59,291 nt of DNA from an uncultured Gammaproteobacteria bacterium (GTDB lineage: Bacteria; Patescibacteriota; Microgenomatia; Daviesbacterales; UBA10151), in assembly GCA_964524895.1 (NCBI GenBank), contig CAZGFG010000004.1, positions 20,469 to 79,759 on the forward strand, read 5' to 3'. Within the stretch, counting starts at the first letter, position 1; every line of letters begins with the position of its first letter. Shown piece by piece: positions 12,677 to 41,963 of this stretch. Below the pieces are notes generated by a model. The model did not search any database. It saw nothing but the letters and a program-made list of their open reading frames with translations, and had not been told where the DNA came from. A program made the position numbers and the translations under genes.

Positions 12677-12988
12677 TTGTCGTTCCGAGTGAAACGAGGA
12701 ATCTCAAGATTGAAAAGCTATTGGGTCTATATTTTAGCCAGTAAAACTGGAATGCTCTATGTAGGAGTAACTAATAATTTAGAAAAAAGGATGTATGAAC
12801 ATAAGAACAAATTGATTTCAGGGTTTACTGCAAAATACCGTATAGACAGATTAATGTATTATCAGGAATTTAATTATATAGAACAGGCTATAGAGATGGA
12901 AAAGAGGATCAAGGGATGGACCAGAAAGAAGAAAACAGACTTAATAAAAACTATTAATCCTGATGTGAAAGATTTAGCAGAAGGTTAA
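12677..12988 (+). CDS. GIY-YIG nuclease (UPF0213/YhbQ-like); start may be TTG 12710
   Basis: YWVYIL...LYVGVTNNL.KR..EH, A...EK.IKGW.R.KK. Confidence 0.9.
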   Translation: MSFRVKRGISRLKSYWVYILASKTGMLYVGVTNNLEKRMYEHKNKLISGFTAKYRIDRLMYYQEFNYIEQAIEMEKRIKGWTRKKKTDLIKTINPDVKDLAEG

Positions 12989-13021
12989 ACCTAGAGATGT
13001 TTCGCCACGCTCAACATGACA
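12678..13021 (+). mobile_element. REP-like element whose two 28-bp arms enclose a GIY-YIG gene
   Basis: left arm TGTCGTTCCGAGTGAAACGAGGAATCTC (12678-12705); right arm GAGATGTTTCGCCACGCTCAACATGACA (12994-13021); arms are imperfect inverted repeats. Confidence 0.65.
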
Positions 13022-13030
13022 AACTGTCTT

Positions 13031-13099
13031 TGTCGTTCTAAGGCGAGGCCGAAGAAGCTCATGTTAATCTAGAGATTCTTCACTAAGTCTAGGATGACA
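13031..13099. repeat. empty copy of the TGTC-tagged palindromic element
   Basis: TGTCGTTC...GCTC, 11-bp spacer, GAGATTCTT...GATGACA. Confidence 0.8.
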
Positions 13100-13131: not shown

Positions 13132-13205
13132 GGGCGGATAGCTCAATTGGTTAGAGCATCAATCTTATACATTGAACGTTCCTGGTTCGAGTCCAGGTCC
13201 GCCCA
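13132..13205 (+). tRNA. tRNA-Ile (anticodon UAU)
   Basis: cloverleaf: GGGCGGA/TCCGCCC acceptor, TCAAT-CT TAT AC-ATTGA anticodon arm, TTCGAGT T-loop; extended -10 TGTTATAAT at 13114-13122. Confidence 0.93.
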
Positions 13206-13281
13206 CAGCAAATACATGATTTAATGTGATAAAAGATCGACCCACCCCTAGTGGTTTTTCAGGTTCAGGTCCCATACTAAT

Positions 13282-14566: not shown

Positions 14567-14832
14567 TTGCGGGGGTGGGAGTTGAACCCACTGCCTCAAG
14601 ATTATGCTCCTACCCTGATTACTCAAGGGGTTGGACTATATCATCACCCCGACATTAGTCGGGGGCCCGGCGTGTAGTCTCTACGGGGTCCTTCGACTAT
14701 GCTCAGGACTTCCCTCGGATATTGTCCTAAATGTTTAGGGTGTCTACCGATATAGCCAGGTTTGCTCCGACAATTACTCATCGGAGGGCCCACTTCTACT
14801 AGCCTTGTGTGCAACCGTTACACTTCCCCGCG
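14567..14832 (-). tRNA. initiator-type tRNA-Met (CAU) interrupted by a group I intron; exons 14801-14832 and 14567-14606
   Basis: spliced product CGCGGGG...CAAGG CT|CAT AA TCTTG...GTGGG TTCAACT CCCAC CCCCGCA A, with the C1:A72 mismatch typical of initiators. Confidence 0.9.
14607..14800 (-). ncRNA. group I self-splicing intron, 194 nt, IC3-like, inserted between U33 and C34
   Basis: P1 GGCU/GGCC with U.G at the splice site, P2 with GUAA loop, P3 CCUGGC/GCCGGG, R GUAGAGACUA, S GAUAUAGUCC, P8, P9 with GUAA loop, terminal G. Confidence 0.92.
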
Positions 14833-14844
14833 ATAACATTAGGT

Positions 14845-14908
14845 ATTCTATGCCCAAGTTATCTTTATGTCAAGCTTTCTTGACATTTAATAAATACTAT
14901 TGTAGTAT
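14845..14908. promoter_or_regulatory. back-to-back divergent sigma70 promoters
   Basis: minus strand TTGACA-N17-TAGAAT (14873-14845) for the tRNA; plus strand TTGACA-N17-TAGTAT (14880-14908) for the HTH gene. Confidence 0.8.
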
Positions 14909-14929: not shown

Positions 14930-15610
14930 ATGATTCGTAAATTCAAAGAACACCAAAAAGCTTTATTTCTAAGACAGAATGGTAAAAGCATTCGGCAAAT
15001 AGCAAAGTTACTCAAAATAAGCCCTAGCACTGCTAGCAAATGGTGTAAACATATTAAGCTATCTCCTAAACAACAAGAATTTTTATTAAATAGTGAATCT
15101 AGAACCTCTCATTTAAGACGCCTAGCAAAACAATCTCATAGGAATAAATTGTTGAGGGTTAAAGAGTTAACTAGTGAAGCTAAAGCTGAAATTAAGCATC
15201 TTAATAAAAACGAACTATTTTTAACCGGTTTAGCACTTTATTGGGCAGAGGGATTTAAAAGTTTGAAGGAAGGGAGAGTGGGTTTCTGTAACTCAGATCC
15301 TAAAATGATTAAGTTTTTTATTAAATGGCTTAAAAGATCTTTTGATATAAAGCCGGAAGATTTAATTTTAAGGGCAGAATTTAATGAGTCTCATGAGTAT
15401 CGTAAGGAAGAGATAGAAAAGTTTTGGTCAAAAACTACTAGGATTCCGAAAGAACAGTTTGAGAGGTCTTTTTACCACAAATCTATATGGTTGAAGAGAT
15501 ATGAGAATCCAGAAAATTACTATGGAGTGTTAAGGATAAGAGTGCGTAAAAGCAGCGAGTTGCTGACTAGAATTAGAGGATGGATTGACGGTCTTAGATA
15601 TGCAGCCTAA
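14930..15610 (+). CDS. HTH + single-motif LAGLIDADG-like protein
   Basis: N-terminal HTH (SIRQIAKLLKISPSTASKW), LTGLALYWAEG, FCNSDP.MI.FF, YGVLRIRV. Confidence 0.7.
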   Translation: MIRKFKEHQKALFLRQNGKSIRQIAKLLKISPSTASKWCKHIKLSPKQQEFLLNSESRTSHLRRLAKQSHRNKLLRVKELTSEAKAEIKHLNKNELFLTGLALYWAEGFKSLKEGRVGFCNSDPKMIKFFIKWLKRSFDIKPEDLILRAEFNESHEYRKEEIEKFWSKTTRIPKEQFERSFYHKSIWLKRYENPENYYGVLRIRVRKSSELLTRIRGWIDGLRYAA

Positions 15611-15731: not shown

Positions 15732-15995
15732 ATGATTACCCAACAAGCTCAAATAAAAATAAATCTTCCGCTAGCTCTTAAAGAATTTTTGGAAAGTAAG
15801 GCTGGTAAATTTGGTATGCCTTTAGCAGGGTACATTAAACATTTAATGCTTAAAGATGTTGAAAATATGGATTATCCTGCCTTTGTACTCTCTGACAAGT
15901 CTGAAAGAGCCTTAAAAAAAGCCTTGAAGGAAAAAGATAAAGCTGTCCTTATTAAAAACAAGGAAGAGTTAGATAAGTTCTTTAAGGATCTGTGA
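15732..15995 (+). CDS. antitoxin-like ribbon-helix-helix protein
   Basis: QIKINLP..LKEFL...A...G...YIKHL; overlaps the downstream toxin gene. Confidence 0.7.
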   Translation: MITQQAQIKINLPLALKEFLESKAGKFGMPLAGYIKHLMLKDVENMDYPAFVLSDKSERALKKALKEKDKAVLIKNKEELDKFFKDL

Positions 15996-16333
15996 AACCT
16001 CTCAAGTTTAGTCCTGATGTATATAAAAAACTAAAGGAAATTCAACTTAAGAACGTAACTTTACATAAAAGAATTCAGAAACAACTATATTTGTTCATAA
16101 ACAATCCTCGCCATAAATCACTCCGTCTTCATAAAATCGAAAGGCGTGACAGCTTAAGTATTTGGAGTATCTCCATCGATAAAAGCTATAGAATGCTATA
16201 TAAAGAAAACGAAGTGATTTACTTCTTTGGTATAGGAACTCATGACGAAGTTTATAAGCGAAGCTTGAAGGCATCGCCGAAAGCTGAACTTTCAGGCTCT
16301 GCCTATAAGCGAGCTAGAAAGGTTTCCTTATAG
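15992..16333 (+). CDS. RelE/YafQ-like type II toxin with a C-terminal extension
   Basis: SLRLHKI, WSISI..SYR, IGTHDEVY. Confidence 0.8.
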   Translation: MKPLKFSPDVYKKLKEIQLKNVTLHKRIQKQLYLFINNPRHKSLRLHKIERRDSLSIWSISIDKSYRMLYKENEVIYFFGIGTHDEVYKRSLKASPKAELSGSAYKRARKVSL

Positions 16334-16371: not shown

Positions 16372-16464
16372 CGAACCACTCACTTTGTTCGGGTTCATGG
16401 CTACGCCACTTAATAAAAGTGACCTAGTATGTTTAGATAACTTTAATAGTTTGAGTGGTGAGGC

Positions 16465-16513: not shown

Positions 16514-16780
16514 GTGAATTTCTACTATGTTTATGTACTTCAAAGTCTGAAGCTAGATTGGATTTATGTAGGATCCACATCTGATCTTCGTCAAAGATTT
16601 AAAAGTCATAATAATGGAGAAAATTTATCTACTAAGGGATACAAACCGTTTAAATTGATTTTCTATGAAGCTTATTTAAGTAAGAAAGATGCCTTAAGAA
16701 GAGAAGAATATTTTAAAACCTCTAAAGGTAAAACTACTTTAAAAACTATGTTAAAAGAATATTTTTCTGGAAAATATTAA
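16514..16780 (+). CDS. GIY-YIG nuclease (second subfamily)
   Basis: YYVYVLQS..., YVGST.DL..R...HN.G, A..RE.YFK. Confidence 0.9.
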   Translation: MNFYYVYVLQSLKLDWIYVGSTSDLRQRFKSHNNGENLSTKGYKPFKLIFYEAYLSKKDALRREEYFKTSKGKTTLKTMLKEYFSGKY

Positions 16781-21788: not shown

Positions 21789-22994
21789 GTGATTTTATAC
21801 GAATTTGAAGGCAAAAAACTTCTTTCTCAAGCCGGGATAAATATTCCCAAAAGTGAGTTATTAGAGTTTGCAGATGGGCAAATAACCATCAGTAACCCCC
21901 TTATTTTAAAAGCTCAAGTTCTATCCGGTGAAAGGGCACAGGCAGGAGGAATTATTCGAATTCAGAATTCAGAATTCAGAATTATGGATGAAGTACAGAA
22001 ATTATTCGGAAAAATTATCAACAAAGAAAAAGTAGAAAAGATTTTGGTGGAGGAGATGGTTAATTTTGAAAAGGAGTTTTATGTTTCCCTTTCTTATGAT
22101 ACTGATACCAGGGGTCCGATTCTGACTATTTCACAGCAAGGGGGAACCGGAATAGAGGAGCGGGATGTTAAAATTTTTCCGATTGATCCACTAACCGAAT
22201 CTGTCATTCCGAGTAATAGCGAGGAATCTCAAAACTTAAATCAGGAGATTTTTCACTTTGTTCGAAATGATATAACTAAAAAATTGGTTAGTCTGTTTTT
22301 CAAGCAGGACTGCCTTCTTTTGGAGATAAATCCACTGGTTCTAACAAAGGGTGGAATTTGGATGGCTTTGGATGCCAAGATTAAACTGGATGATGATGCC
22401 CGTTCCCGCCACCCGGAGTGGGACTTTGCCCCCAGGGGTGTCCCCGGCTATACACCTACCCCCAGCGAGATTGCCGCCAAAAAAATTGATGAAGGAGATT
22501 ATAGAGGAGTAGCCGGTTCGACCTATTTCGACCTCCCCGGCAATATTGCCATTATGTCTTCCGGAGGGGGAGTATCCCTGACAGCTATGGATGCCCTGAT
22601 TGCTGCAGGGGGAAAGCCTGCCAATTTTACCGAATATTCAGGTAATCCGCCCAAGGAAAAGGTGACTAAATTAACCAAGATAGTTTTAAACAAGCCTGAT
22701 ATTGCTGGACTTTGGGTCATTGGGACAGTAGCAGCCAATTTTACAGATATTTATGAAACTTTGTCGGGTTTAATTGAAGGCCTTCGACAAGCTCAGGCTG
22801 AACTTGGTACCAAGTTCAAGTTCCCAATAGTAATTAGAAGGGGAGGACCAAGGGACGAGGAAGCTTTTGGAATGTTAAAACAAGTTAAAGACTTTGATTT
22901 ACATCTGCAAGGCAAGGAGACAACTATTACTCAATCAGCCCAAACAATGGCACGACTGGCAGCAGAATTTGCTCAAAAAGGAGAAGAAAAATGA
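21789..22994 (+). CDS. ATP-citrate lyase/citryl-CoA synthetase beta-like subunit (ATP-grasp plus citrate-binding-type domain)
   Basis: LYEFEGK, LEINPL, LDAK, SGGGVS, ANFTEYSGNP, ANFTDI. Confidence 0.8.
   Translation: MILYEFEGKKLLSQAGINIPKSELLEFADGQITISNPLILKAQVLSGERAQAGGIIRIQNSEFRIMDEVQKLFGKIINKEKVEKILVEEMVNFEKEFYVSLSYDTDTRGPILTISQQGGTGIEERDVKIFPIDPLTESVIPSNSEESQNLNQEIFHFVRNDITKKLVSLFFKQDCLLLEINPLVLTKGGIWMALDAKIKLDDDARSRHPEWDFAPRGVPGYTPTPSEIAAKKIDEGDYRGVAGSTYFDLPGNIAIMSSGGGVSLTAMDALIAAGGKPANFTEYSGNPPKEKVTKLTKIVLNKPDIAGLWVIGTVAANFTDIYETLSGLIEGLRQAQAELGTKFKFPIVIRRGGPRDEEAFGMLKQVKDFDLHLQGKETTITQSAQTMARLAAEFAQKGEEK
22202..22272. repeat. TGTC-tagged palindromic element inserted within the coding sequence
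   Basis: TGTCATTCCGAGTAATAGCGAGGAATCTC-N14-GAGATTTTTCACTTTGTTCGAAATGATA; left arm nearly identical to 12678-12705. Confidence 0.85.
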
Positions 22995-40355: not shown

Positions 40356-40498
40356 GCAGCGGCAAAACTTGTTCTCCAACTCGGCTTCCTCACTTTGTTC
40401 GGAACCGGTTAGATTCGGCTCGTGCACGTCAAGGCTTGTGCTCTCGCTACGAATCTCACCTGCCTCGGACAGTTGAGAACTGTGTTTTGTTCATCTGC
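40356..40498. repeat. 143-bp imperfect inverted-repeat (MITE-like) element
   Basis: GCAG..CAAAAC..GTTCTC.AACT arm pairs with AGTTGAGAAC..GTTTTG..CTGC; internal CTCACTTTGTTCGG shared with 16379-16392. Confidence 0.65.
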
Positions 40499-40519: not shown

Positions 40520-41578
40520 ATGCTTTTGAAGAAGTTAAACTTATTAAATTTTAGAAATTACTCGAATCTGCTCCTTACCTTTGAACAGCGGCCGACTGTT
40601 TTGGTGGGGGATAATGCCGAGGGGAAATCTAACTTATTGGAGGCGATATATCTGTTGTCTACCTCCAAATCAGCCCGGGCAGAGATGGAGAGAGAGTTGG
40701 TTAAAAAGGGTGAAAATTTTTGTCGGGTGGAGGGATTGGTTACGTCCGGAGAGAATGAGGAAACGCAACTTACTGTAATTATCCAATCCGATGAAGAGGA
40801 ACTTTTTAGGAAACGGGTACTGGTTAACGGAGTTGGCAGGAGAGTAGTGGATTTTATTGGTAATTTGCCGGCAGTAATTTTCTACCCTCAAGATATTAAT
40901 ATGGTGACAGGGCCGCCCTCGCTGCGCCGCTGGCATTTGGATTTGGTGCTTGCGCAAATTGACCCTCAATATAAAAGATCCCTGACTTTATATGAACAGT
41001 TTCTAACGGCCCGAAACAGAGTTTTAAAAAGGATTAGAGAAGGAGAGGGGAAAAAAGACGAGCTGGACTATTGGACTCAAGGTTTACTTGATTTAGCACG
41101 GGTGATTTTGGAAAAACGGAAGCAGTTTTTTGAATTTATAGAATCTCTTACCAAACCTTTGGGAGAATTCACCTTTTCCTATAATCAAAGTGTTATCTCC
41201 AAGCAACGACTGGAAGAGTTAAACGGTCGGGAAGTAGCTTCAGCTACTACTCTAGTCGGGCCACACCGGGACGATTTTTCCATAGAACTTGCGGGACGGA
41301 ATTTGTCCAGCTTTGGATCAAGGGGAGAACAGCGCACTGCCACTTTGGCTTTTAAATTAGCCCAGTTGGAGTTTATGGAGAAAGTGACCGGAAAAAGACC
41401 GCTACTCCTGCTGGATGAGATCTTTTCCGAACTGGATGCTTCCCACAGGGCTCACATTGTGGATATTGTGGGGAAACAACAGACCATTATAGCCACGGTG
41501 GAACTGGAAAATATACCAAAGCAGTTTTTAAATTCTGCAAGGGTTCTAAAAGTGGAGAATGGTCAGGTTATTTCTTAA
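40520..41578 (+). CDS. recF: DNA replication/repair protein RecF
   Basis: NFRNY, GDNAEGKSN, GPHRDD, GSRGEQR, LLLDEIFSELD. Confidence 0.95.
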   Translation: MLLKKLNLLNFRNYSNLLLTFEQRPTVLVGDNAEGKSNLLEAIYLLSTSKSARAEMERELVKKGENFCRVEGLVTSGENEETQLTVIIQSDEEELFRKRVLVNGVGRRVVDFIGNLPAVIFYPQDINMVTGPPSLRRWHLDLVLAQIDPQYKRSLTLYEQFLTARNRVLKRIREGEGKKDELDYWTQGLLDLARVILEKRKQFFEFIESLTKPLGEFTFSYNQSVISKQRLEELNGREVASATTLVGPHRDDFSIELAGRNLSSFGSRGEQRTATLAFKLAQLEFMEKVTGKRPLLLLDEIFSELDASHRAHIVDIVGKQQTIIATVELENIPKQFLNSARVLKVENGQVIS

Positions 41579-41837
41579 CGTTTAATTTGGCGGCCAGTTT
41601 GGAGAGTTGGTATGTAACCAAAACTGCAAAAAGAGTGATTATTAAAGCATATAAAAATTTGGTAATCACCCCCGATTGAGAAGAGAAAAAGCGGTTAATA
41701 TATTCTTTGACAAAAGTCTGGATGGCGTCATTCCAAGCTAAAGCTGCTACCAAACCAAAGCCGGATGTAGATAGAGCCACAAGTTGATGCACCAATTCTT
41801 GCCTGAATGATTTTTCTTTTTGAGCTTTGGTAGCCAT
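41568..41837 (-). CDS. DUF5654-like small membrane protein
   Basis: SGFGLVAALAWNDAI and FLYALIIT motifs. Confidence 0.8.
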   Translation of the reverse strand: MATKAQKEKSFRQELVHQLVALSTSGFGLVAALAWNDAIQTFVKEYINRFFSSQSGVITKFLYALIITLFAVLVTYQLSKLAAKLNVKK

Positions 41838-41963
41838 AGTTTTAGCTCCTTCTCCAGCTTTGCCGGATCAGGATGACATTAAGGATTTATTATTTTATCC
41901 TTAATGTCAATTTTAGCATATTGACATTACTTGCCAAATTCCTTAAATTAGCAATAATTTGCC

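Follow-up and report, generated by a model that had tools for sequence, protein, structure and literature searches.

The GIY-YIG gene that lies between two palindromic arms in the DNA analyzed here (a stretch of 59,291 nt, called the window below) very probably forms with these arms a CPR member of the Ssn/SRM system, a partnership between a nuclease and its repeats that has already been described (Chenal et al., Nat Commun 2025, PMC11893778); this assignment was made by comparing sequences. In that system, the enzyme SsnA of Neisseria meningitidis (NMV_0044, a 94-aa single-domain GIY-YIG protein, CDD cd10448) binds an oriented repeat, NTS (CGTCATTCCCGCGMAVGCGGGAATCYRG), as single-stranded DNA only, does not bind RNA, and cuts a few nucleotides upstream of NTS, leaving double-stranded DNA, RNA, and the reverse strand uncut (Chenal et al. 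2025). Mutations of its residues Y6, Y17, and E64 abolish cleavage, and, within NTS, the GTC that precedes the stem is critical for cutting and the C that follows it for binding (Chenal et al. 2025). The same authors found Ssn-related motifs (SRMs) near 71% of homologous genes, on both sides in 42%, and a homolog encoded in 81% of the genomes holding more than 200 SRMs; the sole demonstrated biological role of the system is that, in Neisseria, it lowers transformation by repeat-bearing DNA. In the window, the candidate gene and the repeats are distributed as follows:

12678..12705 (+): left arm, TGTCGTTCCGAGTGAAACGAGGAATCTC; 28 nt, with a TGTC tag, the stem GTTCC/GGAAT, tandem GA, G-TGAAA-C, and a CTC tail
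12710..12988 (+): putative ssn gene; 92-aa single-domain GIY-YIG nuclease, read from its likely TTG start
12994..13021 (−): right arm, reverse complement TGTCATGTTGAGCGTGGCGAAACATCTC; 28 nt, with the stem ATGTT/AACAT
13031..13099: empty doublet, made of an arm at 13031–13060 (+), a spacer, and an arm at 13072–13099 (−), with the TGTC tags outward
22202..22272: empty doublet within an ATP-grasp ORF, made of an arm at 22202–22230 (+), a spacer, and an arm at 22245–22272 (−)
40386..40404 (−): possible decayed arm core (TTCC-GA-ACAAAGT-GA-GGAA), weak and without a TGTC tag
41843..41878 (−): solo arm with an enlarged inner hairpin (TCCGGCAAAGCTGGA)

From the TTG at 12677, the ORF that holds the nuclease is 103 aa long and takes in the left arm; its residues 15–86 match Pfam PF01541 (E 7e-17). 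Because homologs begin at the position of the TTG at 12710, the gene is placed at 12710–12988, with MKSYWVYIL... as the likely beginning of its 92-aa product, and, counted from there, the PF01541 match spans residues 4–75. The one other Pfam match on the protein covers the same stretch and is to T5orf172, a GIY-YIG-related family, and searches of NCBIfam and PADLOC returned no specific family for it. The Shine-Dalgarno sequence, GAGGAA, is provided by the 3′ half of the left arm, 8 nt before the start codon. A preliminary description of this DNA had the arms flanking the ORF exactly; a 28-nt arm does stand on each side, but the left one falls inside the ORF when this is read from TTG 12677, and from TTG 12710 gaps of 4 nt (end of the left arm to start codon) and 5 nt (stop codon to start of the right arm) separate the gene from its arms.

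The link to the characterized enzyme is through a gonococcal ORF of 94 aa, to which the window protein is 44% identical over 85 aa (BLASTP, E 1e-23). Sixteen NTS copies lie around this ORF, all within 3.2 kb, and this setting, together with the length of the ORF and the way in which the mutated residues are numbered, suggests that it is the SsnA ortholog; Y6, Y17, and E64 of SsnA have Y7, Y17, and E64 as their aligned counterparts in the window protein. When the window protein was searched by tblastn in a 7.3-Gb collection, the gonococcal match, found alongside others, had an E value of 3e-14, below the 1e-10 that Chenal et al. (2025) adopt for homology to Ssn. The record holding this match is a chromosome filed as a plasmid, and two N. 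gonorrhoeae records of about 2.17 Mb, NZ_CP119140.1 (L090) and NZ_CP119142.1, are filed in this way while evidently being chromosomes. Close relatives of the window protein number in the hundreds, and several annotated homologs start with MSFRVKRGISRL or finish with LEILHSVQDD, which are translated arms.

The window holds one Ssn-type copy. A second small GIY-YIG gene, at 16514–16780 (+), encodes 88 aa (Pfam 2.9e-17) and belongs to a non-Ssn group; its product is 35% identical to the gonococcal putative SsnA ortholog over 66 aa, and it has no intact arm beside it, only a decayed arm-like core upstream, at 16379–16391. By sequence, the nearest solved structures to the ssn product are 1ZG2 (BH0048) and 1YWL (EF2693), with E 1e-8. 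These UPF0213, or prokaryotic Slx1-like, stand-alone GIY-YIG proteins (Dunin-Horkawicz et al. 2006, PMC1564403) resemble it in being minimal GIY-YIG domains without a DNA-binding domain, but they are far more distant in sequence and have no reported association with repeats. A full-text literature search with the arm sequence gave nothing relevant, and neither did searches for COG2827, UPF0213, and YhbQ.

Turning to the repeats, we built a covariance model, R1, from the collected arms; the left and right arms of ssn belong to its training set and score 41.7 and 40.1 bits, respectively. Among the arms outside the training set, R1 gives 32.8 bits (E 1.6e-6) and 26.5 bits (E 8e-5) to the two arms of the 22202–22272 doublet, at 22202–22230 (+) and 22245–22272 (−), 18.9 bits (E 0.01) to the arm at 13072–13099 (−), 14.5 bits (E 0.15) to the solo arm at 41843–41878 (−), and 11.7 bits (E 0.8) to the arm at 13031–13060 (+). 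By this model, the 59-kb window thus totals seven arms at four sites; the core at 40386–40404 gets 18.3 bits for a partial match, to model positions 6–24. Both empty copies of the preliminary description are present where it had placed them, with spacers of 11 nt in the first doublet (13061–13071), as it had stated, and 14 nt in the second (22231–22244), the first doublet being nine nucleotides away from the right arm of ssn. What had been described as a lone right end at 41868–41878 is there as well, but it turns out to be the tagged end of a whole arm, 41843–41878, whose inner hairpin is enlarged. This solo arm lies directly upstream of, and on the same strand as, a DUF5654 gene at 41568–41837 (−), and a GGAG from its 3′ half stands 9 nt before the ATG of that gene; in the mRNA, the hairpin could mask this ribosome-binding site.

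Each arm folds on itself into a hairpin and is not the mere half of a palindrome. The left and right arms of ssn are only about 61% complementary by count, a repeat search left them unpaired, and the right-arm stem ATGTT/AACAT is a fully compensated change relative to the left-arm stem GTTCC/GGAAT. Across the family, an arm opens with (T/C)GTC and the first strand of a 5-bp stem, followed by tandem GA, a GNA loop on a 2-bp stem, GA, the complementary strand of the 5-bp stem, and CTC. So as not to force pairing, we collected from the fetched loci the distinct 28-mers that match the unpaired anchors alone (TGTC, GA, GA, and C), and in 82 of these 87 sequences the 5-bp stem has no more than one mismatch. 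In 83 of them, distinct arms from unrelated genomes, 97.4% of cells are paired under the proposed structure, against 82% in shuffled sequences and 19–50% in controls with shifted partners; two-sided compensatory changes occur in all seven pairs, with 107 doubly changed cells versus 25 in shuffles, and G-T pairs are few. GCGAAGC and GTGAAAC are the typical inner elements. A GNA triloop of the GCGAAGC type and tandem GA are classic features of unusually stable DNA mini-hairpins, and their combination here points to a DNA rather than an RNA structure. The DNA fold of the right arm (12994–13021) reproduces the model structure, and that of the solo arm (41843–41878) has an energy of −5.8 kcal/mol (z −1.7); with nearest-neighbor DNA folding, however, single AT-rich arms of the window fold no better than shuffled sequence, and the case for a hairpin therefore rests on covariation, the energy argument having been dropped. 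At gathering scores, Rfam contains no family for the arms of the window and of 14 related loci; the snoRNA, CRISPR, and miRNA matches of a permissive Rfam scan were judged spurious, and a reading of the CUGA...GAA core as a hammerhead or other ribozyme was ruled out by inspection, the core being a misfit.

The association of such arms with ssn-like genes extends far beyond the window. A protein-based scan of one genome per species yielded 80 loci, which span CPR bacteria, Chloroflexota, Acidobacteriota, Planctomycetota, Ignavibacteria, Deinococcota, and others, and in which the arms are concentrated within 200 nt of the homologous gene. The commonest layout, seen in 31 of the 80 loci, is that of the window, with a forward arm upstream and a reverse arm downstream. 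A rule-based search of the fetched loci and the window detected 320 arms, compared with 13 in shuffled copies, and the arms are not chance matches. Looser arm rules gave an excess of false matches, and a stricter rule was used with the covariance model instead; a scan for arms in long ORFs of GC-rich loci was swamped by spurious ORFs. The preliminary description had proposed a specific partnership between a GIY-YIG nuclease and a palindromic repeat: the pileup of arms within 200 nt in the 80 loci bears this out, as does the ability of an enzyme of the family to bind and cut such hairpins as single-stranded DNA (Chenal et al. 2025).

Convergent arm pairs fall into two modes of spacing, of 10–19 nt for gene-free doublets and of 280–390 nt for pairs that hold a gene. 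Within an element, left and right stems are identical in 14 of 40 cases when 6.4 would be expected, a count reached in none of 2,000 shuffles, and short doublets are nearly always heterodimers (identical stems in 3 of 42). Arms can also occur far from the gene, with 37 lying more than 1 kb away across the 80 loci, that is, an estimated one per 14 kb. For a reverse test, we scanned metagenome contigs with the arm consensus, so as to sample arms regardless of genes. Of the 122 seed arms obtained, 63 sit in tag-outward doublets, 53 are single, and 6 sit in tag-inward doublets. For 77 arms, the contig extended 500 nt or more in each direction, and only 4 of these arms had an Ssn-like ORF within 500 nt, the other 73 having none. 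On this basis, gene-free copies would outnumber filled ones by about 20 to 1, in agreement with the filled and empty architecture that had been put forward from the window alone. Several Ssn-like copies can coexist in one genome (e.g. L002 and L004 of one assembly). In Acidobacteriota, tandem arrays of arms were seen upstream of Ssn genes, at 2692–3331 of L056 (ten copies with a period of 68 nt) and 4324–4897 of L077 (period of 78 nt); the whole unit is repeated in these arrays, which are hence not CRISPR-like.

Compared with the published system, the window protein is like SsnA a single-domain GIY-YIG enzyme, with 92 versus 94 aa and the Y6/Y17/E64 positions kept, and its arms are like NTS in being 28 nt long, inverted around the gene, and bounded by the outer frame GTCATTCC...GGAATCT. 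NTS and the arms share a tag of the form (C/T)GTC, the outer stem ATTCC/GGAAT, and a tail that begins with C; gene-free repeat copies occur elsewhere in both systems, and they are probably many here as they are in Neisseria. The most conserved arm positions, namely the GTC before the palindrome and the C after it, are those critical for the cutting and binding of NTS, respectively. Like SRMs, which are hairpin-forming repeats of 20–50 nt, the two arms of the filled copy stand inverted on either side of ssn. The inner part is different, with tandem GA and a 2-bp stem carrying a GNA triloop in the arms versus a continuous CGCG stem in NTS, and so is the host, a CPR bacterium here versus Pseudomonadati for the published Ssn. 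The SRM pattern, HGTCWYN(0-2)YYVSBRHN(0-5)WNVSBRGN(0-2)RNCYNB, is matched by the canonical NTS but by none of the 83 arms and no window arm, because the tandem GA breaks its required S/B positions, and R1 in turn gives the Neisseria NTS about 7 bits. This pattern failure and the score of about 7 bits imply that specificity differs and that the cutting of the arms is an extrapolation. The arms, which keep the outer frame and length of NTS while failing the SRM pattern, therefore form a variant hairpin class.

Two other families of repeats deserve comparison. The CGTC/TGTC-tagged REP superfamily of Di Nocera et al. (2013, PMC3733652), which includes dRS3 of Neisseria and RPE-4 and RPE-6 of Rickettsia, had no known dedicated enzyme according to its authors, a gap that SsnA (Chenal et al. 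2025) likely fills. The arms resemble these REPs in their terminal tag, their AT-starting stems, their 3-nt tail, their in-frame intragenic copies, and their one preferred dimer orientation with frequent heterodimers, whereas these REPs have stems of 8–9 uninterrupted bp and loops of 4–5 nt and are found mainly in Alphaproteobacteria. With REP/RAYT systems, Ssn shares a low-copy, vertically inherited nuclease gene flanked by hairpins that are recognized as single-stranded DNA, and dispersed inverted doublets. Yet, RAYT has an unrelated fold, and its HUH chemistry goes through a covalent tyrosine intermediate able to rejoin DNA, unlike GIY-YIG hydrolysis. With a gene that is GIY-YIG and not HUH of the IS200/IS605 type, and a tag that is TGTC and not GTAG, the pair of the window falls outside REP/RAYT, which is an analog only of the Ssn–arm pair. 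The idea of a REP-like mobilizer, which the preliminary description had advanced, is reasonable, and the analogy had already been drawn by Chenal et al. (2025), who likened NTS-ssnA-NTS to an insertion sequence and to REP/RAYT, holding mobility as a hypothesis only.

As regards mobility, the comparison of related genomes offers traces of past insertions next to signs of stability. The doublet at 22202–22272 is read through in frame (SVIPSNSEESQNLNQEIFHFVRND) within ORF 21789–22994, a citryl-CoA/succinyl-CoA-synthetase-like ATP-grasp gene, where the insert falls in a surface loop. Orthologs of this gene include some that are insert-free and several whose same surface loop contains peptides derived from arms. 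Comparison of the DNA shows one insertion junction common to the window and L087, an empty L089, and, in L088, an insertion with a different position and a different frame, which implies at least two independent entries of doublets into this loop. Some arm copies have thus landed in frame within genes. We saw no target-site duplication at doublet ends or at intragenic insertions. The ssn site itself is syntenic in two further Daviesbacteria-like contigs (L084 and L085), with a DUF8128/VirD4-like ATPase gene on one side and a tRNA gene and a tyrosine recombinase gene on the other, and the empty doublet at 13031–13099 is kept in both. Between the syntenic genomes, Ssn is 80% identical, when DUF8128 and the recombinase are 75% and 79% identical, respectively. 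In the near-identical strain contigs L081–L083, we found no presence/absence polymorphism in this region. In L084 and L085, the spacer of the empty doublet reads CTC-AAGATTAATCTA-GAG, and it equals the junctions of the ORF in the filled copy (CTC-AAGA-TTG ... TAA-ACCTA-GAG), which places ssn exactly at the palindromic center of the doublet frame. The 11-nt spacer of the window doublet at 13031–13099 agrees with these junctions too (CTC-AAGATT ... TAA-xCTA-GAG). Taken together, these observations argue for doublets that moved in the past and for an ssn gene that is nonetheless a resident, host-like gene of the Daviesbacteria-like lineage.

By analogy with the Neisseria and Wolbachia enzymes, the nuclease of the window would recognize the arm only as single-stranded DNA that has folded into a hairpin and runs in the forward sense (TGTC to CTC); it would nick a few nucleotides 5′ of the TGTC tag and would be expected to spare duplex DNA, RNA, and the reverse strand. 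As the arms are inverted, the predicted cuts would fall just left of 12678 on the + strand and just right of 13021 on the − strand. The arms themselves would constitute a dispersed repeat family, present mostly as gene-free tag-outward doublets or as singles. In this CPR lineage, since the gene stays at one syntenic site and diverges as host genes do, the pair is most likely a domesticated one, which may act on single-stranded DNA during uptake, recombination, or replication rather than being currently transposing. We also entertain, quite tentatively and as something that may well not hold, a stronger version of the variant-class idea, according to which the arms make up a distinct and uncatalogued Ssn hairpin class (TGTC, 5-bp stem, tandem G.A, GNA mini-hairpin, loop of up to 60 nt) in CPR bacteria, Chloroflexota, Acidobacteriota, Planctomycetota, and others, with a new cleavage specificity and with doublets that would still be mobile, including by in-frame entry into essential genes, the doublet with ssn at its center being the autonomous form.

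Other scenarios can be weighed against this one. The arm-ssn-arm unit could be a selfish, autonomous transposable unit whose nuclease excises and spreads itself together with the gene-free doublets, as RAYT may do for REPINs. The inverted arms do enclose the gene as insertion-sequence ends would, the predicted cuts would lie just outside both of these ends, and the doublet, with a spacer equal to the ORF junctions, looks like an element that has lost its ORF; the repeated entries into one ATP-grasp loop at differing positions and frames, the several Ssn-like copies of genomes such as that of L002 and L004, and the tandem arrays of arms are also what such a unit could leave behind. Yet, we consider this scenario rather unlikely, given that GIY-YIG enzymes hydrolyze DNA and have no known joining or strand-transfer step, that no target-site duplication was seen, and that the window holds a single Ssn copy, at a single syntenic site, as conserved as its neighbors and without presence/absence differences among near-identical strains. 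For the authors who raised it, mobility was itself only a hypothesis (Chenal et al. 2025).

If the repeats were instead spread by other means, ssn could be a parasite that inserted at the center of a doublet and thereby destroyed its own target, in the way of homing endonuclease genes. The position of the ORF exactly at the palindromic center (AGATT|AATCT when empty versus CTC-AAGA-TTG...TAA-ACCTA-GAG when filled) and the roughly 20-fold excess of gene-free over filled doublets would fit such an invasion, but the position is based on one ancestral event common to three syntenic genomes, 28-nt arms would offer very short homology for repair copying, and SsnA spares duplex DNA and cuts outside the hairpin, not at the doublet center (Chenal et al. 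2025), all of which makes this scenario improbable. Least credible to us, to the point of being a very slim prospect, is the notion that the arms work at the RNA level, as transcript stabilizers, attenuators, or masks of ribosome-binding sites (as proposed for REPs), next to a nuclease that would be incidental. It draws on the Shine-Dalgarno sequence that the left arm supplies to ssn, on the GGAG that the solo arm at 41843–41878 supplies to the DUF5654 gene on the same strand, and on the translation of arms within ORFs; against it stand the variable orientation of arms relative to the neighboring gene, the DNA mini-hairpin type of the loop, the rarity of G-U pairs, and the binding of the motif by the family enzyme as single-stranded DNA and not RNA (Chenal et al. 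2025), and it leaves unexplained the cross-phylum enrichment of arms around ssn.

The basic picture drawn by Chenal et al. (2025) is unchanged by these results, which make a modest addition to it: a variant hairpin that escapes the published pattern and occurs in CPR bacteria and several other phyla, and a clear in-frame intragenic case. The results bring a CPR genome and many little-studied phyla within range of a new class of enzymes wanted for the cutting of single-stranded DNA, and, since the published SRM pattern misses a whole class of hairpins, pairs of Ssn and repeats have probably been under-counted. The REPs tagged with TGTC or CGTC, reported as lacking an enzyme, would also gain a likely partner, and the in-frame doublets of the ATP-grasp gene provide in CPR bacteria a case that resembles the RPEs of Rickettsia.

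Several features of the neighborhood can finally be mentioned. The tRNA gene (anticodon TAT) that follows the element, at 13132–13206, occupies the same position in the window, L084, and L085, but its sequence in the window is very unlike the other two copies, which suggests a replacement of the tRNA gene. Further on, at 14612–14891 (−), lies a group I intron (Rfam, 52.9 bits). Its 3′ flank on that strand resembles a tRNA T-arm and acceptor end (GTGGGTTCAACTCCCACCCCCGCA), and a tRNA gene interrupted by the intron may thus have been missed by ARAGORN. Beside the intron, ORF 14930–15610 (+) encodes 226 aa with an N-terminal helix-turn-helix (Pfam HTH_23) and a LAGLIDADG-like stretch (LTGLALYWAEGFK), and it may be a free-standing homing endonuclease gene; in the syntenic L085, its position holds another GIY-YIG gene. 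At 15732–16333 (+), there are two small ORFs with a 4-nt overlap; the downstream one is weakly ParE-like (Pfam E 0.004), and together they form a probable toxin–antitoxin pair.
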